A stretch of 64,000 nt of DNA, from IMG/VR virus record IMGVR_UViG_3300008050_000034; one strand, written 5' to 3'. Position 1 is the stretch's first letter. Each line of letters begins with the position of its first letter. The DNA is from an uncultured virus (IMG/VR IMGVR_UViG_3300008050_000034). Taxonomy: Duplodnaviria; Heunggongvirae; Uroviricota; Caudoviricetes. Made by a program: the position numbers and the translations under genes. Positions 1 to 53,900 of the stretch are shown here, piece after piece. The notes beneath the pieces were generated by a model. The model saw nothing but the letters and a program-made list of their open reading frames with translations, was not told the origin of the DNA and did no database searches.

Positions 1-356
1 ATGCACGCCTTCATCTGATAGTTTCCGCAGTACGGACCCTCCTCGTCGTAGAAGAAGGTCGTATGTGCCCGCGCGACTTCATCGTCGATGGTCGCGTCCA
101 CCGTCTCCGCCCCGAACATACGCTCGAGGTGGCGATTGAGGAGTTCCTCACGCCGTTCCTCGGAAGGAGGCTTGATGCCCTTCCGCTCGCAGTCACGAGC
201 CTCACGATTCAGCTTCGTCTCTACGAACTTCCTCATGAGCTCTGGTGTTCTCGGCTGCGTCCCGAGAACGTCTTCGTTGAACTGAAGTTCCACCAAAAAA
301 TTATTGGTGGATGATGACCGAAGATCGGTCAGATTGTCGATTAGGTTAGTACCCAT
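1..356 (-). CDS. Stand-alone Cas7/RAMP-like protein (3' end truncated by window edge)
   Basis: Hand translation, not in the ORF track: MGTNLIDNLTDLRSSSTNNFLVELQFNEDVLGTQPRTPELMRKF...HTTFFYDEEGPYCGNYQMKAC. AAGGAGGA RBS at 363-370 and promoter motif at 404-429. The pattern resembles the RAMP beta1-G and 'P.I....(I/M)K(G/A)' motifs. Confidence 0.55.
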   Translation of the reverse strand, partial: MGTNLIDNLTDLRSSSTNNFLVELQFNEDVLGTQPRTPELMRKFVETKLNREARDCERKGIKPPSEERREELLNRHLERMFGAETVDATIDDEVARAHTTFFYDEEGPYCGNYQMKAC

Positions 357-403
357 TGTCATTCCTCCTTATGGAATATGCAGGTATTTCTCCTGCATCT
401 CCT

Positions 404-429
404 TTATGCCGGATTTAATGGGGTATTTA
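404..429 (-). promoter_or_regulatory. Recurrent phage promoter motif TAAA-N15-GGCATAA
   Basis: One of about 11 copies upstream of minus-strand units. Confidence 0.7.
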
Positions 430-434
430 ATCGA

Positions 435-656
435 CTACGCAGCTCCAAAGAAGTCATCTTGGCAGCCCTGACACCAGGCCGTTAGCGGGTATTCCTTTCG
501 GGAAGCCTCGTTACGGAACTCCTTAGCGTCACCTCCGCACCTTGCGCACTTATCCTGAGCGAGCGCCTCAGAGCGACTCATCCCGGTCTTCTGAGCGATG
601 TCACCAGAAACCACATCTAGGAGGTCACTGATAGATTTAGCTTTGTTGTCTTCCAT
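435..656 (-). CDS. Small zinc-binding phage protein
   Basis: CxxC...CxxC (CARC, CQGC); GGAG RBS upstream of ATG 656. Confidence 0.7.
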   Translation of the reverse strand: MEDNKAKSISDLLDVVSGDIAQKTGMSRSEALAQDKCARCGGDAKEFRNEASRKEYPLTAWCQGCQDDFFGAA

Positions 657-683
657 GTTTTTGTTCTCCATAGTTGGGGGTTA

Positions 684-714
684 AGAAACAAGCCAGCACG
701 TCTAGCTTGTTTCT
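684..714 (-). terminator. Closing hairpin / probable terminator of the large ncRNA
   Basis: AGAAACAAGCTAG-ACGTG-CTGGCTTGTTTCT, 13-bp stem; the U-tract is short. Confidence 0.6.
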
Positions 715-1310
715 ATCCATGACCCTCGGTCTCCCGAGGTACGCACACCGGCGAACAACGCCGTTCACGGACTTCCTCCCTGTTCTTCCCTTTCGAGACG
801 GAACAGCACGCACTACTGCTGGGACATTCTGTGCTTCCGGACCACAGTTGATCAAACTGGAGTCTTTGACACGGCAACGCTCGACCTCTTGGGAAGGTCT
901 CCTGCTACCCCCTTGCGGGACGATTGTCAGATTGCTCCAACAACCAGAGAGGCTTCTGCCTCCAGCAGTTCCGTTCTATTGACCACTTTCGTGACCAACT
1001 ACCCAAGGTTCATTTTGGGTTATGCCCTGCAACCGTTTCCTCGATGAACGAACAAGTCCGAGGATGCTGTTGGCAGCACTCCGATGGTGGAACATCGGCT
1101 CATGCCTTCAACCACTGGACGGTACTCGGAGTTTCCACGCTCCATAACCCGTCCCCCCTCACTGACTGGGCGGCACGTCGAGTGAACGACGATTTCCCAA
1201 TCGGGGTTTTGACTATCTCCTCATAGAGGAGCCAACGACCCGGCAAGGGTACGAAGGTTTGAGACCCCGTCAACAGGGGGTCACCGCAGGACACAAAGTT
1301 CTACAGCAAT
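684..1310 (-). ncRNA. Large highly structured non-coding RNA (~620 nt), family unknown
   Basis: No convincing ORF; promoter at 1315-1340 and hairpin at 684-714; many stems, GNRA tetraloops (GAAA, GCAA, GAGA), kissing-loop complementarities and long-range helices. Confidence 0.75.
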
Positions 1311-1314
1311 ATAT

Positions 1315-1340
1315 TTATGCCTCAAATGCATAAAAATTTA
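1315..1340 (-). promoter_or_regulatory. Phage promoter motif TAAA-N15-GGCATAA driving the ncRNA
   Basis: Exact match to the recurrent motif, with no RBS/ORF following. Confidence 0.7.
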
Positions 1341-1362
1341 AGAAGCGATAGGGGGCCAGGAA

Positions 1363-1434
1363 CCCCACACATCGCCAACCCCCTGTTTGGTTTACGGTAT
1401 TCCTATGCATACCTGGGGCTGACAACATGTGGGG
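1363..1434 (-). ncRNA. Intergenic structured element (20-bp stem with G-U pairs plus inner hairpin)
   Basis: CCCCACATGTTGTCAGCCCC pairs with GGGGTTGGCGATGTGTGGGG using several G-U pairs that work only on the minus strand; inner GGTAT/ATACC helix. Confidence 0.45.
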
Positions 1435-1447
1435 GAACCTTAGCGTC

Positions 1448-1699
1448 CTAGCTCTCTGCTCGCACCGCCTGAGGGTAGAGTCCCTGGACACGCTCGTCCA
1501 TGGGGCTCAGGGACGTCCACGACCCTTCCTGCCGAAGCAGGTACCAGTCGTTCAGGTAGACGATGTCTCCTTCCTCCACAAGCTCTTCAGCTTGCTCGAG
1601 GACATCTCCGACCGGGTCCTGAAGCCCTGCGGAGAGGAAGGTGGTGAGGTTGTGGGTGTATTGTCCGGCAGGGTCTGCCGTGAATACTCGAATTCGCAT
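1448..1699 (-). CDS. Hypothetical protein
   Basis: AAGGAGGA RBS and upstream promoter motif. Confidence 0.7.
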   Translation of the reverse strand: MRIRVFTADPAGQYTHNLTTFLSAGLQDPVGDVLEQAEELVEEGDIVYLNDWYLLRQEGSWTSLSPMDERVQGLYPQAVRAES

Positions 1700-1744
1700 G
1701 AGTCCTCCTTTGCCGATGCAGGTTCATTTTCTGCATCAAAGTAC

Positions 1745-1770
1745 TTATGCCTTCAAAAGGAGGGGGTTAA
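1745..1770 (-). promoter_or_regulatory. Phage promoter motif TTAA-N15-GGCATAA
   Basis: Recurrent motif. Confidence 0.65.
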
Positions 1771-1816
1771 AGAAGCAGAGGTCCCGATGGACTTGCTTCT
1801 CTCGATCACGAGGACC

Positions 1817-2389
1817 CTACAGGGGCGCTGCTACAGTCCCCCAGGTACTCCAGTACTCCTGGATCTCTCGAGCCTCCTCGACCAGTTGCGCTCGGGTCGC
1901 ATTTGCGTAGGCAGCGTTACCGCCGGCCAGGTTGACCGCGAACCGCCAGGCACCTACGGGGGGCTTGGGCCCCTTGTTGCCGAGGGTGGTCACCCAGCAG
2001 TGGGTGTACCCTGCCTCGCTGAAGGCCGCCTTTTCTTCTTCCGAGGTCTGAGGGTCTGCCAGGAAGGCCTCTGCTGTGTACACGATAGCCGCGACCATGT
2101 CGCACTGACCGAGGTCAGCAGTGTTGCGGTTGATGTACTCAGAGATTTCGCCACGGTGTTCCCGCAGACAGTAATCCCCCACATTGGGGGTACGAAGAGC
2201 GACGCCAGGAAGGACACAGTCCTTGGCGGCCTCAGGCAGGACTACGAATCCCTGTCCGTTCTCAGGGAACTCGAAAGAGGCGACAGCCTCACTCACGATT
2301 CGAGACAGAGTCTCCGGGTCCTTTACGAAAGTCCCGATGGCGGCGGCCGTGAACTGATTCGTTACTATTGGGTGTGCAAAGATGTTCAT
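1817..2389 (-). CDS. Hypothetical protein (possibly distant DUF3228-like)
   Basis: 190 aa, GGAG RBS, upstream promoter; the C-terminal 'IVYTAE...NLAGGN...EYW' pattern is only loosely DUF3228-like. Confidence 0.7.
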   Translation of the reverse strand: MNIFAHPIVTNQFTAAAIGTFVKDPETLSRIVSEAVASFEFPENGQGFVVLPEAAKDCVLPGVALRTPNVGDYCLREHRGEISEYINRNTADLGQCDMVAAIVYTAEAFLADPQTSEEEKAAFSEAGYTHCWVTTLGNKGPKPPVGAWRFAVNLAGGNAAYANATRAQLVEEAREIQEYWSTWGTVAAPL

Positions 2390-2440
2390 GTGGTTTCTCC
2401 TACTGAAGAGAGGTTATTTGAAAGTTCTCCAGTAGTATTT

Positions 2441-2466
2441 TTATGCCCTCCTTTTCCGCTAGATTG
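2441..2466 (-). promoter_or_regulatory. Phage promoter motif CAAT-N15-GGCATAA
   Basis: Recurrent motif. Confidence 0.6.
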
Positions 2467-2516
2467 TATTTATCCAGACATTCCGGTACTTTAGGCACAC
2501 AACCTCCGGAGATCCC

Positions 2517-2750
2517 ATGGCAAAAAAGAAAGAGGAAGGGCCCGTTGAAGCCGAGAAAGTAACTAAGACTAAGGCCTATACGGAAGATCTGGCGAGGGCC
2601 CTAAAGCCCTTCGCCAGAATGTCTCGCCCAGAGGAGGACGATTATCCGGAGGGAGTAATCTGCACCCAAGGCAGCCACTGCATTACCTACGGGGATCTAG
2701 CCCTCGCACGGGAGGTGCTCACCTCTTACATAAAGAGTAAGAAGTCTTAG
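2517..2750 (+). CDS. Hypothetical protein
   Basis: GGAG RBS, 77 aa. Confidence 0.65.
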   Translation: MAKKKEEGPVEAEKVTKTKAYTEDLARALKPFARMSRPEEDDYPEGVICTQGSHCITYGDLALAREVLTSYIKSKKS

Positions 2751-3055
2751 TCCGGCTCTACCCATCGGTAGCCTCGGATGACCTCTACCTTGTAAGTAGT
2801 TACCTCTCCTGCAAACTCTCTAACTTGATCTGCCGAGAGCTCTACCCCCCGTAGCTCCGGAGGAATCTTAAGTGGCACGCTAACAACGCATTCGGCTTCG
2901 GCCGCCAAGTCTAAGGGCAGCACTCCGATGACTCTCTTTCCTCGAACCATTTGAGGAGTCGCATGCTCTGTAAACTCTGTGCCTTCCTCGATCACCTTTA
3001 GTTCGATTAGGTACTCTACGAGACCCGGGTGGCGGGTAATGACTACTGTATCCAT
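2747..3055 (-). CDS. csx16: Csx16-like (Cas_VVA1548) protein, putative cyclic-oligoadenylate ring nuclease
   Basis: Motifs ITRHPGLVEYL, VIGVLPLDLAA and ELRGVELSADQ match the Csx16 signatures (SRHPGA, VIGTLPxHLAA, RGxELSADEL); GAAGGAG RBS. Confidence 0.8.
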   Translation of the reverse strand: MDTVVITRHPGLVEYLIELKVIEEGTEFTEHATPQMVRGKRVIGVLPLDLAAEAECVVSVPLKIPPELRGVELSADQVREFAGEVTTYKVEVIRGYRWVEPD

Positions 3056-3149
3056 AGAAGCTCCTTCAAGCATGTATATAGGGAACTGAAGTTAAAAGGA
3101 AACAATGGTTAGATAACTTAAGGTACGAGGTATATCTTCAAGAGGCAGA

Positions 3150-3335
3150 GTGAAAACAGACCCTGACATATTTGTAGAGGTCGACCAGGAGGTCGACGAA
3201 GAAACCGTTAGAAGGTGGCTACGTCGCGCTCGCCTGGATGATCTCAATATCTTTCACGACCGTAATGAGATGATCGAGGTCTTATGTACGGCTCTTCTTC
3301 GTACTTGGGGTAAAGACCCCTATAAAGAAGGATGA
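3150..3335 (+). CDS. Hypothetical protein
   Basis: GAGG RBS, GTG start. Confidence 0.55.
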   Translation: MKTDPDIFVEVDQEVDEETVRRWLRRARLDDLNIFHDRNEMIEVLCTALLRTWGKDPYKEG

Positions 3336-3451
3336 GGCCCTGCTGCGGGGGAGCAGCAGGACCTCTAATCCTTGAAGGAGGGCCCCAAAGGATGGGGAGG
3401 ATGCGGCCCTCGGATTGTCGGCATCGTACCACAACTATGGACCCATACAAG

Positions 3452-3784
3452 TCACTCGAGTTTGTAGCCTCTGCTCATCCATGCTTCCGGCTTTATATTT
3501 CCCAGCCAGTCGGCGACCGTAGGGATCTTTCCACCGCAGTCTTCTTTTATGTGCTGCTCACAAATATATCGGACATTCACCTTCTTGCCATCAGCGTTTA
3601 GGATTTGATGTCCAAATACTCTCTCCGCTTCAAAGATACCTTGGCTGTGATGCCTAAGGGCCCGATGTCGAAAGTCAGCGAGCATTTCTTTGGAAGCATC
3701 CATCCAATCATGGATCGGAAGGTAGTCCTCAATCTTCCCTCCCCATATACGTACGCTCGTCTTTGCATGATCACACGGATGCAT
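3452..3784 (-). CDS. DUF6915-like protein
   Basis: MHPxxHA...WGG..EDYLPIHDW.D.SK...DFRHRALRHHS.GIF...EQHIKED signature. Confidence 0.75.
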   Translation of the reverse strand: MHPCDHAKTSVRIWGGKIEDYLPIHDWMDASKEMLADFRHRALRHHSQGIFEAERVFGHQILNADGKKVNVRYICEQHIKEDCGGKIPTVADWLGNIKPEAWMSRGYKLE

Positions 3785-4292
3785 CTTTGTTGCCGAAGAC
3801 GTACTCACTGTGATCACTCGAGGTGTAATACTGCTCGTGCTCGCACTTGAGGATCTTCTCCTTTGTCTGGAAGACTACTACGCCTCTTCCCCCATCATTG
3901 TTCTCAAACCCCGGTGCGTGGATCTCTACGATGTCACTCGCAATATCCTCTAGAAGGCTTGTAAGCTCCATCCCCTCTCGGACCCTATCTACCCAGCCTT
4001 CTCCTTCTACGAATACTGCGTAGGTGTCTCTGACGTCCACAATGATGGGCTTCTCTAGCTTGAGCACAGAAAAGTCTCCCGGAGCAGTGTAAGGAGAGCC
4101 CCCCTGGCCTTCCGTATACAGGTCTACTCCATTCATCTGCCCGCTATCTCCGTAGCCGTCATACTCGACCTCTGCAATTAAGCACCCTATCTCTGTCAGG
4201 GTCTCCCATACCTTCTCCAGCTTATTACTAATCTCATCTCTCGTAGCTTCTTTCTTGGCCTTCCACCTGGCCTCCCATTCCGTACTGGTCAT
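3771..4292 (-). CDS. DUF6878-like protein
   Basis: YDGYGDSG and GFENNDGGRG motifs; adjacent to the DUF6915-like gene. Confidence 0.7.
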   Translation of the reverse strand: MTSTEWEARWKAKKEATRDEISNKLEKVWETLTEIGCLIAEVEYDGYGDSGQMNGVDLYTEGQGGSPYTAPGDFSVLKLEKPIIVDVRDTYAVFVEGEGWVDRVREGMELTSLLEDIASDIVEIHAPGFENNDGGRGVVVFQTKEKILKCEHEQYYTSSDHSEYVFGNKDASV

Positions 4293-4328
4293 CGCTTCTT
4301 CCTCGTTTAATGTAAAATATGGCAGGAG

Positions 4329-4366
4329 CTTTCTCGGCTGGGCCTTGCGGGGCCCAGCCGAGAAAG
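4329..4366. repeat. Perfect 16-bp inverted repeat (hairpin)
   Basis: CTTTCTCGGCTGGGCC-TTGCGG-GGCCCAGCCGAGAAAG. Confidence 0.85.
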
Positions 4367-4375
4367 AATACTCAC

Positions 4376-4705
4376 TCACCCCTGTAGAACTCGGATCTTG
4401 TTCCGCAGACGACGAGCAAGCTCGTAGTCGTAGTCCGCCTCCGCATCTACCAGTTCGAGCTTCAGCTCCAGGATCCGGTCTTCGCGAGACCGGTAGGAGC
4501 TTCCTCCGAGAACCCTTCGGTTCTCTCGGTGCATCGTATCGATACGATGCTGCTTGAGGCGAGCCTCATTCCGTCTCAGACGGTCTGCCCGCTCCTCTTC
4601 AGTCTCAGGTTCAAAGTCAGAGCACGCTGCAGCAACGATGCCGAGCGTGAGAGCGCCCAGTAGTCCGGCAACGGCAACGCCGCCTATATCATCAGAACTC
4701 GACAT
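4376..4705 (-). CDS. Membrane-anchored hypothetical protein with coiled coil
   Basis: N-terminal hydrophobic segment; UVR-like C-terminal DYELARRLRNKI; AAGGAGG RBS. Confidence 0.7.
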   Translation of the reverse strand: MSSSDDIGGVAVAGLLGALTLGIVAAACSDFEPETEEERADRLRRNEARLKQHRIDTMHRENRRVLGGSSYRSREDRILELKLELVDAEADYDYELARRLRNKIRVLQG

Positions 4706-4763
4706 GATATTCCTCCTTATGTCGACAAGGCCTCTCCCGTGGTTAGGAGGGTCCTTACTATAT

Positions 4764-6563: not shown

Positions 6564-6980
6564 ATGCCAGACGCACTCATCTCCCAGCTCCTAGACTTTG
6601 GTGCTTTGGGAATCTTCGCCGGATTTTTAATCTGGCAACACCTTGGAATGCAGAAGAGGCTGGACGCCTTGGTAGAGCGCTTTCAAGGACAACTAGATAA
6701 GATAAACGCAGATTATGATGGCCGAATAGAAGTAATGCGGGAACGGTATGACGTCGTTATTGGCGGTATCCGTTCCGAAGCTTCTGATGCCCAGAAGGAT
6801 TTTCTTCTCATAAGGGAGAAAATACATGACGATCTTGTTGATAAGATCGACGATAATTCTCGGAAGTTAGATTCGGCCCTGAAGAAGATAGAGACGGGAC
6901 TAAAGGAAATGCGAGAGCATTACGTGTCTGTCGAAATCGAGAAGAAGGCGAGAGAGATTGCCTCCAAGGACGTGCCCTAG
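6564..6980 (+). CDS. Single-TM coiled-coil protein (BhlA/UviB holin-like)
   Basis: FGALGIFAGFLIW TM segment followed by coiled coil. Confidence 0.45.
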   Translation: MPDALISQLLDFGALGIFAGFLIWQHLGMQKRLDALVERFQGQLDKINADYDGRIEVMRERYDVVIGGIRSEASDAQKDFLLIREKIHDDLVDKIDDNSRKLDSALKKIETGLKEMREHYVSVEIEKKAREIASKDVP

Positions 6981-8744: not shown

Positions 8745-8829
8745 TGGTGCGGGGTAAGGGACTCGAACCCTTACAGCTAAAGCCGCCGGCTCCTAAAGCC
8801 GGTGCGTCTACCAATTCCGCCAACCCCGC
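8745..8829 (-). tRNA. tRNA-Leu(TAG)
   Basis: GCGGGGTTGGCGGAATTGGTAGACGCA-CCGGC-TTTAGGA-GCCGG...GGTTCGAGTCC...CCA; long variable arm. Confidence 0.95.
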
Positions 8830-8833
8830 AAAG

Positions 8834-8907
8834 TACCCGGGGCGGGATTCGAACCCGCACTTGGGGGATTTTAAGTCCCCTGCCTCTGCCAATTGGGCTA
8901 CCCGGGC
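8834..8907 (-). tRNA. tRNA-Leu(TAA), short variable loop
   Basis: GCCCGGGTAGCCCAATTGGCAGAGGCA-GGGGA-CTTAAAA-TCCCC-CAAGT-GCGGGTTCGAATCCCGC; no encoded CCA. Confidence 0.9.
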
Positions 8908-8919
8908 AGAGGGTAAGGT

Positions 8920-8994
8920 TGGTAGCCGAGGCGGGACTTGAACCCGCGACAAATAGCGTGTAAAGCTACTGCTCTCCCACTGAGCTACCCGGCC
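8920..8994 (-). tRNA. tRNA-Val(TAC)
   Basis: GGCCGGGTAGCTCAGTGGGAGAGCA-GTAGC-TTTACAC-GCTAT...GGTTCAAGTCC...CCA. Confidence 0.95.
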
Positions 8995-9380
8995 ACGGCC
9001 CTTTTTCTCTCGGCATGTCTCGCTCGTGCGTTCTTGTTTGAGCATTCGCGGCTGCAGTATTTTGACCTTGCTCGATGAGGGTTATCACAGGAAGCCCACG
9101 CACATCGAGCAATTTGGAGCTCTCGCCTTCTCCGATCTACCCGTTCTCGCCGAGTAGCCAACCTCCGTTCGCGCTTAATGTCCTCGAGGCGAGCGAGGTA
9201 CTTTTCATGTTGAGGCTCTACTATCAACCGTATTCCCGGTTCTCCGTAGACTCTCTTGCCGCATGCCCAGCACACCAAGACCATAGCGCCCGTGGCACTA
9301 GATACGTCCTTCTCTATGTAAGTGTTGGTGCTGGTGCATTTTGGGCACTGTATCCGGAAGCTTGGCATTTCTGCGGCCAT
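8985..9380 (-). CDS. Zinc-finger protein (two Cys clusters)
   Basis: CPKC...CWAC and CAWASC...KYCSRECSNK (CGNR-like). Confidence 0.7.
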   Translation of the reverse strand: MAAEMPSFRIQCPKCTSTNTYIEKDVSSATGAMVLVCWACGKRVYGEPGIRLIVEPQHEKYLARLEDIKRERRLATRRERVDRRRRELQIARCAWASCDNPHRARSKYCSRECSNKNARARHAERKRAVAG

Positions 9381-9507
9381 CGAGATGTCCTTCCTCGTGC
9401 GTAGTTGTTTTGTATTAGATAGTAACGAACCCGTAAAAAGCAGTCCCTTCTTCGTTACTGACCCGAGCGGAAGCAAATAACCGATCGGTACCCTCTATCT
9501 CGCGATC

Positions 9508-9717
9508 TTAGATTATCTCGGACTCTGAGCACCGAGGAAACTCAGTACCCCTAAGGTGCCTGGTGGCTTTTGCCCAAAGAAGCTCTATCTCTTTCAATGT
9601 AGGCTCTCTTTTTAGTCGAGACAAATAGTTCGACTTGATGACGTCTACAACACTCCCTAGTAGAAAGACCATTGTCTCGTCGACTACGGGAGCTGTTGAT
9701 TTCCGTTTCATATTCAT
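9508..9717 (-). CDS. Hypothetical protein
   Basis: Short ORF between tRNA genes. Confidence 0.55.
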   Translation of the reverse strand: MNMKRKSTAPVVDETMVFLLGSVVDVIKSNYLSRLKREPTLKEIELLWAKATRHLRGTEFPRCSESEII

Positions 9718-9726
9718 CTTCCTGGC

Positions 9727-9802
9727 TGGTAGGCCCGCCGGGAATTGAACCCGGGACTTCTCGCTTATAAGACGAGCGCTCTAACCCCTGAGCTACGGGC
9801 CC
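9727..9802 (-). tRNA. tRNA-Ile(TAT)
   Basis: GGGCCCGTAGCTCAGGGGTTAGAGCG-CTCGT-CTTATAA-GCGAG...GGTTCAATTCC...CCA. Confidence 0.95.
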
Positions 9803-9865
9803 TCAAGGCCAGGGGATTAAAAGAGTGCTTGAGCTGTGCTCCTTAGCGTCTGTAGCGAATCGGAT

Positions 9866-10054
9866 TTATTCCTTCTCGACTTCGATGCTTGCTGCCCTGA
9901 AGTCTTTGAGATCATTACGAACCTCCTGAGCGGTCTTCCTCATTCTCTTGTTGGCTGCCTTCCATCCATAGCCTTTGCTATCTATGAGTTCGGCGTCGTC
10001 AAGGTGGGAAGCGAGGCGCTCCACGAGATCGTTCAGTCTTTCAGAGATGTTCAT
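9866..10054 (-). CDS. Histone H1-like (Hc1-family) small protein
   Basis: DAE...G..KAANKRMRK..QEVRNDLKDFR resembles the GNKAAGTRARK...LKEFR family; AAGGAG RBS. Confidence 0.65.
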   Translation of the reverse strand: MNISERLNDLVERLASHLDDAELIDSKGYGWKAANKRMRKTAQEVRNDLKDFRAASIEVEKE

Positions 10055-10107
10055 TTTTGAACTCCTTTTGGTGTTCTTTGGTTTTAGAGGGGACGACTAA
10101 GATTTAG

Positions 10108-10180
10108 TGAGCCGCCCGGGACTTGAACCCGGAACCGTCGGATTAAAAGTCCGATGCTCTACCAGTTGAGCTAACGGCCC
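10108..10180 (-). tRNA. tRNA-Lys(TTT)
   Basis: GGGCCGTTAGCTCAACTGGTAGAGCA-TCGGA-CTTTTAA-TCCGA...GGTTCAAGTCC. Confidence 0.95.
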
Positions 10181-10191
10181 GGACTCTGCTT

Positions 10192-10217
10192 TTATGACGT
10201 CTCTTCCTCTGTTTTTG
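10192..10217 (-). promoter_or_regulatory. Phage promoter motif CAAA-N15-GTCATAA upstream of tRNA-Lys
   Basis: Recurrent motif, 11 nt from the tRNA 5' end. Confidence 0.6.
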
Positions 10218-10325
10218 TTTTGGTTGCGGAGGTACTCACACCTCTCCTCGTTTAGTCTTATTAGTGTCTTCAAGTCCCACATGAGTATCTCCTTTTGAAA
10301 ACATCATAAGAAGTATAGAAAGAAA

Positions 10326-10402
10326 TGGCACCCCCAGGAGGATTCGAACCTCCGACCCTCGGCTTAGAAGGCCGATGCTCTATCCAGCTGAGCTATGGGG
10401 GC
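10326..10402 (-). tRNA. tRNA-Arg(TCT)
   Basis: GCCCCCATAGCTCAGCTGGATAGAGCA-TCGGC-CTTCTAA-GCCGA...GGTTCGAATCC...CCA. Confidence 0.95.
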
Positions 10403-10433: not shown

Positions 10434-10958
10434 TCAAGGGCAGCTACTGATTATCTCTCGAAGTACGTCTTCAGAGATAGACCCACTCTCCGCCCTTCCA
10501 GACCAGGAGTGGACTGAGGGTTGAGTAGAGTAGTACATCTCTCCGCAAGAGAGGGCGTGGAGCATTGTGTCCCTGACGTGGACCGGATTCTTCGGCTCGG
10601 GACATGAGGCAGCAGAAACGGCCTCCCCAAACAAAAGCAACTCGGACCTTTCGTCATTCATTGATATCCATCTTAGGATTTCTTCGTCCTCTTCTGCCAG
10701 GGAGACTCGGCCCAGTGCCTTGGTCTCCCCTACTATGAGAGAAGAGTATGAATCTCCAGCCTCCCTCTCTTGAGGGTTCCGGATACTCATACCCCTCACC
10801 CGAGGGTTCCCATCCAAGAGAGACTGCACTTGAGCAATAGCCTCGAGTGCCTTCTCTGCTTGGACAACGTCTACTTCTACGAACATGTAGATGTCGCTCT
10901 CTAGCCGGTCGCTACTCTGGCAAAGAGTGATAGTTCTATACATTTCAAACCTCCTCAT
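10434..10958 (-). CDS. Hypothetical protein
   Basis: Overlaps the upstream gene; GAGGAGG RBS favours a slightly downstream start. Confidence 0.65.
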   Translation of the reverse strand: MRRFEMYRTITLCQSSDRLESDIYMFVEVDVVQAEKALEAIAQVQSLLDGNPRVRGMSIRNPQEREAGDSYSSLIVGETKALGRVSLAEEDEEILRWISMNDERSELLLFGEAVSAASCPEPKNPVHVRDTMLHALSCGEMYYSTQPSVHSWSGRAESGSISEDVLREIISSCP

Positions 10959-12537
10959 TGGAGATCTCTAGTATCTCCAGATCTACTGTTTTGCGATGCA
11001 GTTCCATTTGGACCATCTCTCCCACTTCCGCGTCTAGTAGAGCTATTGCAAGTGGGACATGCAAGCGCAGTAACTTCTCCTCCCCTGACTGTGCTGCCTG
11101 GGGGCTCCACAAGGTGACTGTTCTTTCTCTACCCGTATCGCAGTTTTGGAAGCGGACCTTAGACCCTCTCTTTACAATCAAAGGATCCGGGTAGAGGGGA
11201 GCCGCTTCCTCCTCAACCTCTGTTACCTCCGTGACGGGGTCCGCAGTGACTGGCCTCCTCGACTTAGGGCGATAGATCCCTGTCTGGGATGGCGCATGTC
11301 GTGGCCCAAATCTACGTGGCCTTTCCTGGGGAGGGGCGGAAATGGGAACAGAGACGATCTCGGGAGTTGCCCCGTTCCGGCCCATCACGGGCTGAGTTGG
11401 GTGCAGAGGTAGTTGGGCAGACACCGTCTTGCCCCACCCAAGAGAGGATGCGGTAGCCGGATGACCATTTACCTTAAGTGCCGAAGTCTCGTCATCTCCG
11501 TAGGTCCCTCTCGAGGCATGTGCTTTCCATGCAGCAAGAGTGCGCTTAGGTATGTCGAAGATCATGGCCACTTCCTCGAGTGAGTACGTCCCGATCAAAG
11601 ACAGAGCCGTAGGCCGAAGGGCACTCATCCCGTCCTTCGCAGTCATAGACTTGTAGGACAAGAGATTAGTTCCATTCTCCTCGCACCACTTCACTATAGA
11701 TAGCATCTGAGATTCGTGGACAACGAGGTACCCTACAGTGAAGAAGGGAATCCCAGGATGTCCCTTGTCTTTGGAGTGGTAAGCCAAGATATTGACCGCC
11801 AGAAGTTGGATCTGCTGAGGCAGAAGCACGGCGTCGGCGCACTGACGTATTACGTCAGCCCTAACCATCGCCCTTCCGACAGCAGTCAACGTCCTGTTCT
11901 TTCCTCGAAAGAAAGTCTGATCGTCTCCGACCTTGTCCTCGCTCCAGATCTTACGCATTCTCTTCTCACAGAGAGCATACAGCTCCTTCACTGCGAACTT
12001 CCCGTGAACGTACATCCGGGCTCCGGCCTCGTCTCCCCGGTTGATTGCCTCTTGCTTGAGCTTCTTTCGAAGAGGGCGAGGCAGCGGAGGAACGATTGAG
12101 AACTTGTTCTTACCTAGGTGCTCTCGTCCCTTGATCATGGTTACTCCCAGAAAGGCCGGGAGCGTTGCCACATTCCTGGCAACCTCAACGATGCTCTCGA
12201 TGTTGTCGACAGACAGGCCTCCGCAGAAGTCTAGGTGGACTGCATTGTACTTCAGGTAAGGAGATGCCTTCCCCACTTCCGCATGAACGACAGTGGTCCC
12301 CGGGTACAACTCTTCGCAGAACTCTGCGTACTCCTGCTTCTTATCCACAACACTTATCTGGGACGGGTCAAAGCCCAACCCCACTAGAGTTGAGACATCG
12401 CCGCCCTCTCCTCCCAGAACTAGAGACCCCTGATAGGGAATCCCCAAGCTGTTCATGAAATTAGCGCAGCTAATCCACAGCTTCGTTCTGGTGATCTTCT
12501 TACCGGGGCTGTCCCCTTTGTAGTTACCAGACGACAT
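10945..12537 (-). CDS. Multidomain protein: SAM-methyltransferase-like N-terminus, HTH-like segment, C-terminal GreA/GreB C-domain
   Basis: LVLGGEGGD/VVD/HLDFCG; SLEEVAMIFDIPKRTLAAW; GSKVRF...PLAIALLDAEVGEMV...LEILEI. Confidence 0.65.
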   Translation of the reverse strand: MSSGNYKGDSPGKKITRTKLWISCANFMNSLGIPYQGSLVLGGEGGDVSTLVGLGFDPSQISVVDKKQEYAEFCEELYPGTTVVHAEVGKASPYLKYNAVHLDFCGGLSVDNIESIVEVARNVATLPAFLGVTMIKGREHLGKNKFSIVPPLPRPLRKKLKQEAINRGDEAGARMYVHGKFAVKELYALCEKRMRKIWSEDKVGDDQTFFRGKNRTLTAVGRAMVRADVIRQCADAVLLPQQIQLLAVNILAYHSKDKGHPGIPFFTVGYLVVHESQMLSIVKWCEENGTNLLSYKSMTAKDGMSALRPTALSLIGTYSLEEVAMIFDIPKRTLAAWKAHASRGTYGDDETSALKVNGHPATASSLGWGKTVSAQLPLHPTQPVMGRNGATPEIVSVPISAPPQERPRRFGPRHAPSQTGIYRPKSRRPVTADPVTEVTEVEEEAAPLYPDPLIVKRGSKVRFQNCDTGRERTVTLWSPQAAQSGEEKLLRLHVPLAIALLDAEVGEMVQMELHRKTVDLEILEISNEEV

Positions 12538-20170: not shown

Positions 20171-20840
20171 AAAGCTAACTGACTTTGTACTGAAGGAGGC
20201 ATCTATCTTCTCTCCTTTGGCAAACTTCTTCGAGTCCCGAGAGAATAAGAAAGCGTTAAAGAGAATAGACAGTCACTTCCGGACTGATGACAAGAGTAAG
20301 TGGGACAGCTTTCTTCGCAATACGGGAAGGAAGTCCTTCGTAAAGAACTTATCTCGAGACCCCCGGTCCGATGAGAAGTTAGTTATGCATGCGGACAACA
20401 TGAACCGCATGCGATCGGGGAAGAAGCTTGGAACGGTCTCGGGATCTACCGGGAAGAGGTACGACATTGTTAAGCTAAGGGGGAGCCCCCGCCTCGGCTG
20501 TAACTGTAATGACTGGCGGTATAAGAGGTCAGTAGCCCTCGCAAGTTCTCCAGATAGTGAGAAGGACTGCCGGCATATCAAACAGTGGAAGAGGGAGAAG
20601 CAAACCAAAGTGGCTGGGATGTCATTTCTTAAACAAGATCGACCAGAGAAGGTAAAGGACATCTACAAGGCCCTAAAGAGAGACCATCCCACTATGCCGG
20701 CCGAAATGAAGGCACGGATCGCTGCGCGCCAGGGCAAACCTGGCAAGCAGAAGCAGGGGCCTCCGTACAAAGGACCGATAAAATCCGCATCAATCCCTCT
20801 CTCCTTTTTTAACGCACTAAGTGAAATACTTTCCCCGTAG
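20157..20840 (+). CDS. Basic protein with SWIM-type zinc finger
   Basis: CNCNDWRYKR...CRHI. Confidence 0.7.
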   Translation: MPHSEKLTDFVLKEASIFSPLANFFESRENKKALKRIDSHFRTDDKSKWDSFLRNTGRKSFVKNLSRDPRSDEKLVMHADNMNRMRSGKKLGTVSGSTGKRYDIVKLRGSPRLGCNCNDWRYKRSVALASSPDSEKDCRHIKQWKREKQTKVAGMSFLKQDRPEKVKDIYKALKRDHPTMPAEMKARIAARQGKPGKQKQGPPYKGPIKSASIPLSFFNALSEILSP

Positions 20841-20846
20841 GTACCT

Positions 20847-21092
20847 ATGACCGAGAACATGCCGAAACCCAGCGTCCTGATAATGGGAGCTCTAGCTCTC
20901 ATTGCTGCTGGAGGAGCTGGGTCCATGCTGGGAGTAACTATAGAGCCCCAAAGTACGACCGAGCTCCGGGTGGAAAGGGCACAGTTGGCAGAGAGAGTGA
21001 TATCTCTTGAGTCGAGAGTAGAACTACTAGAGGGAATTGTTAATGACTGTCAGGCAGTCATAGCAGCCTCTAGAACAAGGCTGGAGGACTAA
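20847..21092 (+). CDS. TM + coiled-coil protein (possible i-spanin)
   Basis: N-terminal TM segment, heptad-like C-terminus. Confidence 0.45.
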   Translation: MTENMPKPSVLIMGALALIAAGGAGSMLGVTIEPQSTTELRVERAQLAERVISLESRVELLEGIVNDCQAVIAASRTRLED

Positions 21093-47962: not shown

Positions 47963-50900
47963 ATGGCAAATACTAATTCCCAGGCAGAGCAGATCAGAGA
48001 TCTCCTCGTAGAGAAACTAGAGGCGTATGACCCTACTCTGAATATTGCAGAGGGCAGCGCCTTCTATAATCAAGTAGTTGCCCCTGTTTTCTCCGTCTTA
48101 GACGTAGACCCTTTCGATACGGACATTGAGGAGTTCCTTCTTACTCGCCTCAGGCAAGAGTTCCCTACCGTATCTGCCCAGGAAGGCGACGCCATCGTCG
48201 ACCTCCTTGTGCGCCCTCTCCAGCTGCTCCTGGAGTCCTTTAAGAGAGAGTTGCAGATCATTCGGACTGGGCAGTCCGTTGTTAACTCAGATCTGATCCG
48301 CTTAGAAGATGCAGAGGACCTGGCAGCCAACTTTTTTGTTGAGAGAAGAAGTGGGTCCAAAGCGACTGGAACCGTTAGAATCTATTTCTCTAACCCTACC
48401 TTCGTAAGCATCCTAACTACCGCTACTTTCACGTCTTCTGAGGGACAAGTATTCAGCCCCCTTACTCCACAATTCTTCCGGCCAGAGACCCTGGCGGTCC
48501 AGAAATCTGGAGTGTATTACTACATAGATACAGTAGTTACTGCGGCTTCAGAAGGAGCTGAGTACAACATCCCCGCGAATACTCTCACCCAACTGACCGG
48601 AGTCGAGGGGTCTGTACGCTGTACTAACCTTTATTCGTTTGGAGGCGGGAGCGTCTCCGAGACTGGGGCGGAGCTCCTAACTCGCACTAAGCAAGCCCTC
48701 ACAGAACGTGCACTGAATACCCGTCGCGGTATTCGTGCAAGGCTCTTTAATGACTTTCCAGATATCAGGAACATGGAAGTCGTGGGCTTTGGCGATGCAG
48801 AGATGCAGCGCGACATCGTTACTGGCGGTGGAGGCATGGACGTCATCTCCTCCGGAATGTGCTTTATCGTCGGTAGGTACGTTCTCCTGTTTTCAATGTT
48901 CGAGGATTCGTCCTTAGACGAGGATCGGTACATCGAAGAGGGCACTGTACTGGACCTTAACTTTTGGAAGTTCCTATACGAGACCACCACAGAGAAGGCG
49001 CACCAGCACTTTACGGTGCAGGAAGTCATCTATAACTCTAAAGATGACTTAGAAAGTATCCCAACAGTCTACATCCTTAAGATAGATGAGGCTCCAGATG
49101 TTGATCCTCCCGTAGTCGGCTCCTTGCCTGGAGTCCTGCCCGGAGTCTTTGCAGTAGCTTACGACACCGCAAAGATTCGTATCTCTGACATTCCAGGAGG
49201 CATCACAAACCCGGACGATGAGGGCGCTATCGTCGTAACTGATGGGGACGTGCACATTGGCGGCCACTATGATGTGTACCTGCGTCCTGCAGAGTCTAGA
49301 TCAGCCACAAATAGCTTAACTGTCACACGCAGTGAGGTGCAGCTATCCGAAGGCTCTGACCTGGTCACGTCGGGGGAGATTCCGGATGACCTCGTCACGC
49401 TAGGGGCACTGAAGAACAAAGTCACTGCAAAGTACCGACTTCTTATTGCTCCCCTAACTGGAACCCTTGGCGAAGGGGAGATCCTTACTCGAGTAGATCC
49501 CACGACTCTCTTAGAAGATCCAGACACTTCGGCATATGCCTTGGACTTGGACACTGCAGAGGGCTACGTAGATTTGGCATGCCTATCTAGCGATAATGTC
49601 TTCTCAGTTAATGACATCATCGTAGGTAAGACTACCGGCGCGACCGCAGTGATTTTAGATGTGGAGTCCGTCCTTTGGGATGACCTGGGAGTGGCCCGGG
49701 GAATGAGCCTCCAAGTGATTAGTGGTGCCGATGCAGGTGTCTATAAGATTCTGGATGTTCGAGGAGTAGAGCTAGTACTGGATCTGGAGATGACTGTCCG
49801 AGGTCAGGGGTACCAGTACCGGGTCGTAGATGAGTCGGTAGTTCATGCGTTCACGCCCAAGGCCAAGATCTACCCCTTTGGAGAAGAGACAGCCAACGAC
49901 CTGGACACTGTGATCGGTAGCGAGACCGTAAAGGTGACTGTGGACCTAACCCAGTATGGGGTTGTATCGGGCCACACTCTGGAGATCTTGGGAGGAGACA
50001 ACAAAGGTGAGTACACCATATTGGACTTTGATGAGTTCCTAGGAGGAAAGGCCCCTATTCTGGATAGAGCACTGCGGGCTACCGATTCTAATCTCGAGTA
50101 CATCATTCATCAGGTAACTTCTGGGCTGACTTCTCCCCTAGTTAGGATCGCTCCCGGAGGAGTTGAAGTTCTGGATGCCTCTGGGCAGCCAGCAGGCTTT
50201 ACCGTACCTCCCGCCCTGCCTGCCGGAGCTCGAGCCTACCAATCATTCTCCGGAGCTAAGGCTTCCTATCTAGGGAAGAATGGCTTTATTCTTCCAGATC
50301 CGGGACCTACCTGGAAGCCTAGTGGGGACGTCTATGTCAACGCTGACGACTTCGATCCCGCAACAGATTTAATCTTCCAGTACAGTGGGGGCCCTCAGGC
50401 TTGCTACTCTGGAGGACATGACCACGACCCTGCCTATGCTCAGTACGAGCCCTGCGATGTCTGCGAAGACGGGTACGTAGCGGTTGTAACTATTGCAGAT
50501 ATGCCCACCTCCGCCGGAGGGCATGATGTTCGAGTTCACCTAAACATCGATATTCCTCCAGAGCAGAAGCTCTTCTTGCAGCAGCTCAGAGACTGGATGG
50601 TCAACGTTGTCGAAAACTTTCAGTTGGGAGATGACTTCCGATCATTCGTAGATCTGTTTGCCCCGATAACTTTCGATCCAGTAGACACTTCGGCTTGGAA
50701 TATCCTGGCCCAGTATGAAATCTGCCTCCCAAAACAGCTGTGGGACGGATGTAACAATGTCTTTGTGGCTATCCCAGAGTTTGACTGGGCGAATGAGTTT
50801 GCGGATGACGTCCTCTTTGAGGATGCGATGGACATGTCCAATAACGGTGAGCTCGCTGGGACTGACCCCGCGCTCACAAAGGCAGAGCCAGGATCTGTAT

Positions 50901-53900
50901 TGACCGTACTGTCCGGCAGCAACGCAGGCTCTTACATCGTAGATCGAGTGTATAAGTACTCTCTTGTCCACGGAGGAACGGTCCAGACAGGAGACGACGG
51001 CACTGCCTATACCGGAGATGATTACGTCGATCGAGAAAAGGGGTATCAGATTGCAGTTGTCTGCATTGAAGACGAATTCCCCGTAGAGGCATTTAGAGAT
51101 CTCTCTGAGTACATGAGCCTCACTACGCCTACCGTGGCACTTCCTCCTGCCCCAGTATTCAACGTAGAGTCCATTATCACTTCTGGTGCGTCCGCCGGGA
51201 CGGTACTCGGTCCTTGGGAAGTAGTGCAGCACGCAGCTACCTGGCTGTTCCAGTATCTGACTTCTATTGGATTTGATGTCCCAGACGAATTCATTGTGAA
51301 TCCTGACTCTGTCCTAAAGACAATAACCCAGACTTTTTTCACTGATTATGTCGTAGGGCATCCAACCTGTGAGCAGATGGTTCGGATGCTGTTCACTGAG
51401 CCCACATCGGTCACTGCCTATGGAAGTAGACCGTGTGAGGACTACACGTGGAATGAGACAGATATGGAGTCCGCCTCCGTACTCAGTGCTCCCCTCCTTG
51501 GGACAGTTCTTCCTCTCCCCAATATCGTAGGTACTGACCTGACGGTATACATTAAGACTATCGACGGAAGCACGGTAGAGATTACCGAGGCCGCAGACTC
51601 GGCAGTAGCCGAGGCGGAGACCGCTGGAGATTTGGTTACTGCGCTACAGGAGCTACTAGACAGTACTCACGAGACCTTTACGGTACCGACCCACCAGGAG
51701 CCAAGTGGAGACGGAAGTGACCCCATCGCCTTTATAGCTCTAACTACTGTAGAGCAGGGGCAGGACTGTGAGATACGAGTAAAGGCAGTCAACTCCGAGG
51801 ATGGATTCCGACAGTTAGGGTTCTATGACACAGAGGGCGGCATCCCGGACATGGTCTCCCACGGTATTCCGACCATCGCCGAGTCCGATTGCATATTTCC
51901 GATCAAAGACTCCATGGGAGTACAAAAAGAGTTCTCCTACGATGAGACTGACTCTATGGAAGTGGAGATAGACTTCGACCCTAGTGGAGCCTCTCCCAAT
52001 GCAACTATCCTGCTCTCTGCGATAGACACCACCGGTAGTGCAGAAGACCTGACCCTGGGCGAGCAGGCGACCCTTGTCTCGAGCGGAGGCTACTCGATGG
52101 TGACTGTAGTCTTCTTAGGCTACATCGAGTACCCCGTTACTGAAGCTACGGACCACGGCATTGCATTTTACGTTACGTCCACAAGTGGCCTACCCGCACA
52201 TCAAACCACGTGGGACAGTACCGGAGATACCTGGACCCTGACAGGGAACTCCTCAGGGAACACAGTAGGCCTCAAACCTGGTGGAGGACTGTACTACGCC
52301 ACCGATGCCACTATGCCTGCTTCGGCCTCAGTCCCCTTTACTGGCTCCAGTACGTACGGAGCCTCCTTAGCCTCCGAGATCGAGGCCTCACTAGATCATG
52401 CTTTTGCCTACTACCTCATGAGTCTATGGAACGGAGGAGTATCCGCCATCTTTCCAGATCCAACTGACTACCAAGCGGTTGTCTGTGCAGATCTATGGGG
52501 CTGGACCGCCGCCCTCAGTGACAACGGAATAAGCGCCAGCATTGAGGTGACCCTTGATGCGGGGGAAACGGCACTCACAGCGGATTCCTACGTAACGATG
52601 GGCTTCCCAATAGATTCAGGAGCAGGAGCCACTACATGGACTGCTGTGGGAGAGACCCACACTATCGACTCAGCCAACTACACCCTATTTGACATAGAGG
52701 TGACCGTCGATTCGGACACAATTTTGTCTAACTCCCTGTCCCTCGAGGAATTCTTGGAGATAAACGCGGAGTTCCAGGATTGGACTGAGACGTATGCGGC
52801 TGATTCGTGGGTAATTAAACATACTCAGAAGATGAATTCGATTGAGCACTTTTCTGTGGGATTGGGCCTCTCAGATAAAGTTGAGATTGTCTGGAGCGCA
52901 GTAGCGAACTCTTCAGCCACGGTAGACACTCCCGTGGGGCTGGTACTCAACTCCGAGATGACCACAGATCCTGCCACCACCACGGCCGCCTGGCTGCTGA
53001 GTGTCTCGTCTACAGCAGGGGTAGCCACGAATGCCATAGGGACCGGGACATCTATGCCGGGAGAGGAGCATACGAAGTACCTCCGCCCGAAACCCCCTAC
53101 TCTGTTTAGTACGGACTGTGGGGCATCAGAGCTCTTGTTCGTTGCCACTGCAAGTGAGGACCCTTTTCAGGTGTTCCCTGGAGAGTCTCGATCTGGGAAA
53201 ACAGCGCCCACTGCCCTACCGAGAGACACATCGTTCTCGTCTCATTACAGTGACGCAGGGCCTCCCATACTCGAGGCTACGGCGTTTAGGGCCGTGTTCG
53301 AGGACGGGGCGCTAGTCTCTCCACTCCTTGCCGGGGTCCAGAAGGGTACGGATGTTCTTGAGGTATATGAGCAGAGAACCTTGCTAGAGCTCGCAGACAC
53401 TGGAGCGGAGAGCTCTCCTGCGAAGCAAGATAGGGTCGTTGCGGTTACGACCTCATATAACTCTAACGAGGTAGCGATCCACAGCCTCCAGTACGGTACT
53501 TCAGACTTCACGTTTATGACCGCAGAGTCGACTCTGGAGGCCGACGAAGTAGTTCCCGGAGACATTCTCTTTATCGAAGAGGGCACGGATAAGGGAGGCT
53601 ATACCGTTATTACGGTCTCAGATACGGCCCTCACTTTGGACAGGGCACTAACCGAGACCACCTTGCAGACGTATTCCTCGGGGAATGAGGGAGCCATCGA
53701 CGAAGGGGAGACTCTTACCGATCTCAATAGTCCTTTTACCTCCGATGACGTAGGAAGGTACCTAACGATCTACGCCTCCGCGTATGAGAATGTAGACGGG
53801 AGTTACCAGATACTGGAGGTCAGTAGTGACGGGGCCACCGTTACCTTGGACCTGTCTGGAGAAGTTTTCCCAGTCACGGAGACGAACGTCCGGTGGATAG

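Follow-up and report, generated by a model that had tools for sequence, protein, structure and literature searches.

A gene for a structured non-coding RNA outside the catalogued families, found in large marine phages

The DNA analyzed here, called the window throughout, is a stretch of 64,000 nucleotides (nt) from an uncultured tailed virus (IMG/VR record IMGVR_UViG_3300008050_000034). Near its beginning, on the minus strand, our analysis revealed the gene of a conserved and structured RNA that codes for no protein. The RNA represents a family of large marine phages that has not been catalogued, a conclusion that we hold with high confidence. A sequence-only reading of the same DNA had proposed at this place a structured non-coding RNA of ~620 nt, belonging either to a known ornate class or to a new class of large structured phage RNA. 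The proposal is borne out by a fold that beats shuffled sequences (z -7.10), by covariation and by the absence of a kept reading frame and, with no match in Rfam, it is the new-class branch that holds. The gene is delimited as follows.

~1307-684, minus strand: RNA gene of ~625-630 nt with some 29 helices; conservation with the homologues runs from ~1290 to 684

Few large and highly structured RNAs are known from bacteria and phages and their functions are mostly open, and each new class is valuable since the cryo-electron microscopy of the GOLLD, ROOL and OLE assemblies. The RNA described here is a strong candidate, as it is backed by covariation, is the sole DNA that aligns between the window and relatives with nearly fully diverged proteins, and is found in marine RNA libraries of three studies. 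It has in common with GOLLD and ROOL two unexplained habits, namely phage origin and proximity to tRNA genes. Additionally, its alignment can seed a covariance model that would annotate an otherwise "empty" gap of 0.6 kb in marine phage genomes.

Folding and coding potential

The minus strand of 672-1310 folds with a minimum free energy (MFE) of -267.1 kcal/mol, compared to -227.6 +/- 5.6 kcal/mol for 20 dinucleotide shuffles (z -7.10); none of the 20 shuffles was as stable and the centroid lies near the MFE structure. The plus strand of the same stretch gave a z of -2.72. The homologous RNAs of two other phage contigs, at the loci L198 and L205, are 655-690 nt long and also beat their shuffles in folding (z -4.7 and -3.3).

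Regarding coding capacity, the sequence-only reading had noted that no open reading frame (ORF) follows the putative promoter; the ORFs within the stretch are only 33-72 amino acids (aa) long on the minus strand, none of them conserved, and 33-102 aa long when both strands are taken together. No reading frame is kept across the alignment of the three sequences, stops being present in all six frames of each of them. The indels of this alignment (1, 1, 2, 4, 1, 23, 1, 3, 7, and 1 nt) do not preserve a frame, the substitutions counted by phase (52/62/51 and 48/65/56) are without three-base periodicity, and tblastx matches are scattered over all six frames, some of the homologue frames being open for 129-149 codons.

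Homologues in marine phages

Homologues were identified by nhmmer with the window RNA as query, run on stretches found by short pattern scans of IMG/VR. An 18-nt pattern taken from the hairpin at 1098-1081 led to five stretches, one of them genuine (L198). A core pattern gave two matches, both genuine, namely L204, which lies on the contig of L198 itself, and L205; a further pattern, from 1047-1033, returned at least 117 chance matches and no genuine one. The nhmmer alignments to L198 and L205 span the full RNA.

L198: record G006, 152.5 kb, CheckV completeness 36%, nhmmer E 2.9e-85
L205: record G008, 58 kb, CheckV completeness 13%, nhmmer E 1.8e-83

Based on the CheckV completeness estimates, the genomes of G006 and G008 should be roughly 400 kb in size, and their gene content includes a DNA polymerase, helicases, a clamp loader, a UvsX-like recombinase, ribonucleotide reductase, GroEL and a baseplate wedge protein. 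In blastn comparisons the window matched these two records in the RNA only (75.5% over 546 nt in G006 and 74.6% over 547 nt in G008), and the RNA was also the best match between G006 and G008 (85.7% over 691 nt). At the protein level, seven of the 148 window ORFs of at least 80 aa match G006/G008; four of the seven overlap the RNA or tRNA genes, and the other three are real proteins at 23-34% identity. Proteins common to the RNA-bearing phages do not exceed 35% identity, and the RNA is the most conserved piece of DNA among these otherwise very distant phages.

In addition, four sequencing runs labeled as marine metagenomes, picked using positions 600-1400, were compared with positions 1-3000 of the window. 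Contigs from the RNA libraries of three studies fall on the RNA, two of them identical to the window (X2 at 968-1260 and X4 at 817-1079) and one 3.5% different (X5 at 706-1099). They provide a hint of expression and not proof, since strand, ends and level are invisible in them and since the runs were chosen with this very stretch. The three RNA runs held no pieces of at least 31 nt from the flanks (1-683 and 1311-3000), an observation that is not used as evidence because positions 600-1400 had served to pick the runs and rare sequence is lost from contigs. A diverged copy was also found on a 5,979-nt DNA contig of a sequencing run; it matches 763-821 and 930-1105, the intervening part being replaced, and shows a further joint of 1105 to 1227.

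Searches through neighboring genes delimit the distribution of the RNA. Among the 78-aa, 190-aa and 572-aa neighbor proteins, none had a usable relative in IMG/VR, and none of the 32 loci reached through the DUF6915 neighbor contains the RNA. The 35 homologues of the 190-aa family led to 36 metagenome loci and six IMG/VR loci, with the RNA present only in a near-identical contig, L033; synteny with the loci of this family stops directly after the 190-aa gene, the contig carrying which has 75,451 bases according to the protein index. A covariance model of the central domain (R1) detected exactly one copy in G006 and one in G008, and no copy in the six phage contigs that share the 190-aa gene, an absence that is firm only for the two complete ones (G003 and G004), the other four being incomplete. 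When the RNA was compared by BLAST with these contigs, the hits in G001-G005 did not rise above chance level (best E 0.1), and G007 had no hit. Contig L033 differs from the window at 17 positions, none of them in the RNA, a lack that does not reach significance (P about 0.1), as a single gene holds 15 of the differences and the rest are few. These 15 differences are confined to a 67-nt patch (57-123) of a 120-aa ORF (3-362, minus strand), which represents a local hypervariable spot in a contig otherwise 99.7% identical over 5.1 kb.

Beyond IMG/VR, a scan of GTDB genomes with the core pattern yielded 11 loci, none of which fits the profile. GenBank phages gave no match to the window RNA by blastn, apart from three chance-sized hits at E<=10, and the L198 homologue was likewise without a match there. 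The 25-nt match found in a huge phage (record LR756511) sits in coding DNA and was considered a chance event, and weak second matches in G006 and G008 (L203 and L207) were set aside, as they lie within long ORFs. The full-text literature searched contains no description of this RNA; bioRxiv supplements are outside its coverage and a listing there is possible.

Covariation and helix plan

The alignment of the window, L198 and L205 (A2) comprises 760 columns with a mean column identity of 82%. Conservation starts ~20 nt before helix H2 and ends at the end of the 3' hairpin, and the flanks are unalignable. RNAalifold predicted 212 pairs, 53 of them with compensatory changes, and the cleaned structure consists of 191 pairs in 29 helices, with 96.0% of 570 cells paired. 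Changes on both sides were found in 54 of the 191 pairs, compared to 4-8 in six slid controls in which partners were moved by 1-3 columns, and none of 500 shuffles reached this value; at least one compensatory pair is present in 22 of the 29 helices. The general test for a conserved structured RNA is an excess of compensatory changes over controls, and such an excess is what the alignment contains. The main elements of the plan are listed below.

1263-1282, minus strand: hairpin H2, GACCCC/GGGGUC; three of six pairs change on both sides
1232-1257, minus strand: irregular hairpin H3 with U/U internal loops; all eight pairs invariant and thus uninformative on pairing, the sequence being strongly conserved
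1155-1206, minus strand: long arm H5-H6-H7; three of seven pairs in H7 compensatory
1081-1154, minus strand: hairpins H8/H9 and H11; covarying pairs 2/6, 3/5 and 2/6
1024-1079, minus strand: H12 and H13, the latter a local UCCUCGG/UCGAGGA hairpin with a 13-nt loop; three of seven H13 pairs compensatory
815-969, minus strand: central multi-branch domain closed by ACUGCUG/CAGCAGU, with H19 (GCAA), H20 (GNRA), H21/22 and H23/24
806-780, minus strand: hairpin H25, CUGUUC...GAACAG, GAAA-capped, supported by the alignment
714-684, minus strand: 3' closing hairpin H29, 13 bp as read; 12 pairs counted, two of them compensatory

The central domain includes a 44-nt stretch identical to L198, and three or four GNRA tetraloops are conserved (GCAA in H19, GCAA/GAAA in H20 and GAAA in H25). 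A helix of the single-sequence MFE structure, joining 1064-1024 with 809-774, is replaced in the alignment by the local hairpins H13 and H25. Furthermore, a fourth lineage is represented by contigs of the runs X5 and X3, with 14 differences over 706-1099. Nine of the changes were listed and mapped by hand: four fall in H21, where pairing is maintained or improved in each case (G-C to G-U, U-G to C-G, G-U to A-U and A.C to A-U), while the other five are at unpaired positions. In the diverged X3 contig, the changes listed in H12, H13 and the junctions also fit the structure.

The motif coordinates given by the sequence-only reading were all correct where checked (GUGGAA, UUCCAC, GUUCAU at 1049-1044, AUGAAC at 1013-1008, UUCACU at 1186-1181 and AGUGAG at 1163-1158), and eight of its nine hairpins can be credited with support from the homologues. 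The two homologues support GACCCC/GGGGUC, CUCCUC/GAGGAG, GGACGG/CCGUCC, the GCAA-capped 11-bp hairpin, CCC-GCAA-GGG, UCUC-GAAA-GGGA, CCUCGG-GAGA-CCGAGG and the closing hairpin at 714-684. The GAAA-capped hairpin at 999-978 is present in the window, and the relatives form a shorter hairpin instead. The local CGAUU-GGGA-AAUCG hairpin is not supported: it is broken in the relatives, and GAUUGGG (1202-1196) pairs with CCCAGUC (1170-1164). As for the two long-range helices that had been drawn, the one joining 969-963 with 821-815 is supported; the one joining 974-969 with 803-798 is not, 806-801 being engaged with 785-780 in a local GAAA-capped hairpin.

A side observation concerns the X2 contig, in which the identity over 968-1260 is followed by 32 differing letters (window ~1261-1292). 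By eye, the continuation has the same preceding sequence and a different hairpin at the place of H2, as if the hairpin had been swapped between strains.

Candidate tertiary contacts

Contacts between loops, and one palindromic loop, were considered as candidates for tertiary or intermolecular pairing.

1185-1181 (H7 loop) with 1163-1159, minus strand: candidate pseudoknot of five pairs, all paired in the three sequences
1138-1133 (H9 loop, GUGGAA) with 1092-1087 (H11 loop, UUCCAC): candidate kissing pair, 17 of 18 cells paired, no covariation
848-856, minus strand: apical loop of H24, UUUGAUCAA, with the palindrome UGAUCA at 854-849

Three kissing loops had been claimed, and they fared differently. 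The UUCACU/AGUGA(G) complementarity is kept, as the H7 candidate pseudoknot, with one compensatory change (U-A to A-U) and one one-sided change (A-U to G-U). The GUGGAA/UUCCAC complementarity is conserved with one break in L198 and is too invariant to be informative. The GUUCAU/AUGAAC pairing is not conserved; the relatives lack it and have H14 capped by a GAAA tetraloop.

The H24 loop reads AAGUGUACAG in L198 and L205, with the palindrome UGUACA. None of the other ten hairpin loops of the 11 examined has a 6-nt palindrome, whereas this loop is palindromic in both lineages; with shuffles that keep composition, P was 0.011 for the H24 loop itself and 0.022 if any loop was allowed. In PMC12286853, the switching of palindromes in one loop is taken as support for symmetric intermolecular kissing loops in OLE and GOLLD.

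The conserved core

The part of the RNA that is most widely conserved lies toward its 3' end.

763-811, minus strand: core consisting of H25 (806-780), GGAGGAA (779-773) and the start of H26 (771-765)

The GGAGGAA stretch is invariant, unpaired in the consensus and Shine-Dalgarno-like. An invariant GUG AAC follows six bases past GGAGG, the GUG (768-766) being locked inside the covarying helix H26. Several X3/X5 contigs, some at a depth of ~30, match only ~745-821 and then diverge from the window, and some of the continuations resemble by eye the corresponding parts of L205. Since these contigs match the core only and then differ, the family is broader than the three full-length sequences; the four sequencing runs point to at least four further lineages.

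The ORF starting at GUG 768 is not conserved, and in L205 it stops after 11 codons according to a hand translation of the alignment. A small peptide starting at this GUG was rejected for the same reason, and the start-like site thus does not serve peptide production. Judged from the sequence, GGAGGAA...GUG is no gene and either resembles a start site or acts as a pairing partner.

Comparison with known RNA families

A check against the Rfam families of large RNAs (GOLLD, ROOL, OLE, HEARO, RNase P, tmRNA and introns) had been suggested, and it returned no family match. With Rfam 15 at the gathering score, the whole window gave six matches, all of them tRNA, and at E<=10 the region 500-1500 gave two, both to snoRNA models and on the opposite strand. 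The L198 and L205 loci, searched at E<=5, gave five matches, one being a flanking tRNA and four belonging to unrelated families below threshold; the single sub-threshold match touching the RNA locus was sobemo_FSE (E 3.4), at the terminator hairpin of L205. The models of GOLLD, ROOL and OLE had no match in the window or in L198/L205. Likewise, no match was obtained for group I/II introns, GIR1, HEARO and other large Rfam RNAs, and the RNA lies between unrelated genes in three contexts.

RNase P RNA was rejected, as no model matched at E<=10. The resemblance of the GGAGGAAGUCC-like stretch at 779-769 to the P4 motif of RNase P is loose: the stretch lies in the 3' quarter and differs in two letters in the relatives, and the P4 motif is expected near the 5' end. 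A tmRNA was also rejected, given that ARAGORN reported only six tRNAs at 8745-10402 and Rfam nothing on the stretch. These tRNA genes form the following cluster.

8745-10402, minus strand (the strand of the RNA): six-tRNA cluster, Leu-UAG, Leu-UAA, Val-UAC, Ile-UAU, Lys-UUU and Arg-UCU, 7.4 kb upstream of the RNA (ARAGORN)

Among the known classes, the likeness to GOLLD is manifold, the RNA being phage-encoded, several hundred nucleotides long and rich in helices and GNRA loops. GOLLD is likewise known from marine metagenomes and, according to PMC12286853, found near tRNA genes, GOLLD and ROOL often lying near tRNA islands. The setting is of the same type here, with phage hallmarks in the window, G006 and G008 and tRNAs ~20 nt, 2.9 kb and 7.4 kb away. 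In G006 the single tRNA of the 152-kb contig lies 2.9 kb upstream of the RNA, and in G008 the single tRNA of the 58-kb contig lies about 20 nt past the RNA terminator. One loop switching palindromes is described as the signature of a symmetric intermolecular kissing loop in GOLLD, many members of which exceed 800 nt, compared to ~625-690 nt for the present RNA (PMC12286853 for GOLLD). Moreover, no sequence similarity to GOLLD was found, and its Rfam model did not match even at E<=10.

ROOL (Rumen-Originating, Ornate, Large) is nanocage-forming and roughly 600 nt in size, similar to the RNA described here. It is also phage-borne and often near tRNA islands (PMC12286853), and no protein partner is known. 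The differences lie in the lack of an Rfam model match, in the origin of the present RNA from marine huge phages and in another helix plan. OLE (Ornate Large Extremophilic) is encoded on the chromosomes of extremophilic Firmicutes and has dedicated partner proteins, whereas the present RNA is phage-borne, lies in a phage-gene context and has no match to the OLE model of Rfam. The two are alike in being ornate and about 600 nt long. In addition, the OLE dimer includes a symmetric kissing loop with a covarying palindrome (GGCC, GAUC or AGCU; PMC12286853), and the palindrome of the H24 loop has GAUC at its center in the window, the relatives having GUAC. Because the Rfam models of GOLLD, ROOL and OLE fail, we filed the RNA as a new class within the "large ornate phage RNAs."

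Ends of the transcription unit

Two features upstream of the RNA bear on its being a unit of its own.

1352-1366, minus strand: GC hairpin directly past the upstream 83-aa ORF (1448-1699) and ahead of an AT-rich stretch, read from the sequence
1308-1340, minus strand: AT-rich promoter-like region with -10-like TAAATA (1317-1312) and TATATT (1313-1308)

The hairpin at 1352-1366 may terminate the upstream gene, in which case the RNA would form a separate unit, and an analogous terminator-like hairpin is found upstream of the RNA in L198. The promoter placed at 1315-1340 by the sequence-only reading survives in part, as an AT-rich stretch with -10-like hexamers at 1317-1308. The matching place in the relatives holds TACAAT (L198) and CATATT (L205), upstream of a shared UUGC, and the scan called the L198 promoter. 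The promoter motif has no repeat elsewhere in the window.

At the other end, H29 is followed in the window by UUAACCCCC. In L198 and L205, a second GC-rich hairpin and a T run come after H29, and strong intrinsic terminators were called.

Proposed mechanism and alternatives

We consider it fairly probable that the overall best explanation is a free-standing RNA gene with the mechanism proposed here, in which the RNA would act in trans as an RNA-only architectural molecule. The fold of the monomer would be held by the GNRA loops, by the pseudoknot of the H7 loop with 1163-1159 and by the GUGGAA/UUCCAC hairpin kiss. Two copies would then join by a symmetric kiss of their H24 palindromic loops (UGAUCA in the window and UGUACA in the relatives), resulting in at least a dimer and possibly a larger assembly. 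The exposed, invariant GGAGGAA core beside H26 would be the best candidate for a site of partner contact, the partner being either the 16S rRNA of the 30S subunit, through its anti-Shine-Dalgarno end, or a different segment of the RNA itself.

On its own, the proposal that the RNA acts in trans and associates with itself via the H24 palindrome, as an ornate RNA comparable to GOLLD, ROOL and OLE, is our best guess at the mechanism and should be taken as tentative, being less likely than not. A more specific version, to which we assign a rather low probability, would make it the marine huge-phage counterpart of GOLLD/ROOL, namely an H24-mediated RNA-only body that displays the GGAGG...GUG core to host ribosomes or to the phage tRNA supply. 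If the counterpart reading were true, no gene in a deep-branching group of large marine phages would be more conserved than that of the RNA. Handles for mutation and assay are offered by the palindromic loop and by the exposed GGAGGAA core.

Several observations weigh against this explanation. Only three full-length sequences from two main lineages are at hand and, L198 and L205 being mutually close, many of the compensatory changes amount to a single event that separates the two lineages. Neither the pseudoknot nor the kissing pair has statistical support (165 of 500 shuffles reach the observed values). The palindrome comes down to two observations with a P computed post hoc, and the UGAUCA of the window overlaps a possible extension of the H24 stem. 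The GGAGGAA stretch may equally belong to an undetected pseudoknot, for instance with the invariant CUUCCC of H22. Concerning the unit itself, a simple sigma-70 scan called no promoter on the minus (RNA) strand of the window and no canonical terminator was called after the window RNA, so that the ends of the unit in the window remain inferred. The next ORF starts 13 nt past the last hairpin, with an ATG at 671, and read-through or a leader role in the phage of the window is possible. Finally, Logan contigs in RNA libraries do not establish transcription.

A monomeric ribosome or protein decoy, or a ribonucleoprotein scaffold, is an alternative that we find rather unlikely and yet the most serious one. 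Its GGAGG...GUG core would capture 30S subunits, S1 or initiation factors, or would dock a phage protein, and would thus tune translation in the course of infection. Such a role is consistent with the block 811-763 being the most widely conserved part, to which the matches of several divergent X3/X5 contigs are restricted, and with an invariant, unpaired GGAGGAA next to a covarying helix that holds the GUG, the ORFs that start at this GUG not being conserved. On the other hand, no protein gene travels with the RNA, the neighbors differing in all three phages. The only small protein present in the three RNA-bearing contigs and in none of the three RNA-less ones has a membrane helix and a coiled coil, is encoded 4-26 kb away and does not resemble an RNA-binding partner. 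The purine stretch may, furthermore, merely pair within the RNA.

The contrast between the RNA (75-86% identity) and the proteins (at most 35%) might alternatively reflect a catalytic or mobile RNA, such as a ribozyme, an intron-like or a self-propagating element, which we regard as improbable. Strong purifying selection gives the same contrast, as is the case for rRNA compared with proteins. Mobility would agree with a context that differs in each phage and with the absence of the RNA from all six contigs that share the neighboring 190-aa gene (p190). However, the RNA sits between genes and not within one, is present in one copy per contig, and has no reverse transcriptase or homing endonuclease among the neighbors tested. 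Its size and complexity are within the range of large ribozymes, but there is no Rfam match to group I/II introns, RNase P, GIR1 or small ribozymes even at E<=10.

Very improbable is a cis-acting structured leader of the downstream 78-aa zinc-ribbon-like ORF (671-435) in the phage of the window, a role suggested by the lack of a canonical terminator after the last hairpin and by the ATG at 671, 13 nt past it. The 78-aa, 83-aa and 120-aa flanking ORFs were found only in the near-identical L033 and not next to the homologues, strong terminators close the RNAs of L198 and L205 with unrelated genes downstream, and the RNA-library contigs fall inside the RNA. As for a chance structure or an overlooked protein-coding gene, the spurious ORFs of 33-102 aa on both strands and the homologue frames open for 129-149 codons lend it hardly any credibility in view of the z of -7.1, the 54 compensatory pairs compared to 4-8 in controls, the frame-breaking indels and the lack of three-base periodicity. 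The share of probability left over by these readings goes to mechanisms outside this list.

Genomic context and other features

The window is part of a tailed-phage contig, with PHROG matches to baseplate-wedge and tail-fiber proteins, a DNA ligase and the six tRNAs already mentioned, most of its proteins being of unknown function. The genes next to the RNA differ by phage. In the window they are small unknown ORFs, and the 78-aa ORF after the RNA (435-671, minus strand) contains two Cys pairs (CARC...CQGC), appears zinc-ribbon-like and had no relative in IMG/VR.

In G006, the RNA is accompanied by an unknown 300-aa gene, with a topoisomerase-IB/HAD fusion nearby. This fusion, which is unusual for a phage, is a 1,042-aa protein encoded 1.7 kb downstream of the RNA (L208, 9153-12281, minus strand), and it combines the catalytic core of a eukaryotic-type topoisomerase I (E 2e-26) with a "Swiss Army Knife" RNA-repair HAD domain (E 9e-12). 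The same record carries giant ORFs on the minus strand at L227 5854-18891, L229 4661-17152 and L224 6476-15667, with about 4,346, 4,164 and 3,064 codons, respectively. In G008, the RNA lies beside patatin-like and fatty-acid-hydroxylase-like genes; the surrounding locus (L209) also contains a WGR-domain gene and, at 1283-4726 on the minus strand, the gene of a 1,147-aa protein that combines a C39-like peptidase domain at its N-terminus with EF-hand calcium-binding motifs.

The small protein with an N-terminal membrane helix and a coiled coil is encoded at 6564-6980 (plus strand) in the window, at 50727-51044 (minus strand) in G008 and at 20694-21017 (minus strand) in G006, and was found in all three RNA-bearing contigs and in none of the three RNA-less relatives searched (G001, G003, and G004). 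It resembles a membrane or lysis-type protein more than a partner of the RNA, and its co-occurrence perhaps reflects kinship only.

Further upstream, positions 10945-12537 (minus strand) encode a 530-aa protein whose last ~75 residues match the GreA/GreB C-terminal domain (Pfam E 2e-10), and which may be a phage transcription factor. It has a relative in G006 at 34% identity and is one of the three window proteins with such a relative. Finally, three small adjacent genes at 2747-4379 (minus strand) match Cas_VVA1548 (putative CRISPR-associated, E 4e-19), DUF6915 (E 3e-46) and DUF6878, and DUF6915 is widespread in IMG/VR phages, with 32 loci at 61-75% identity.

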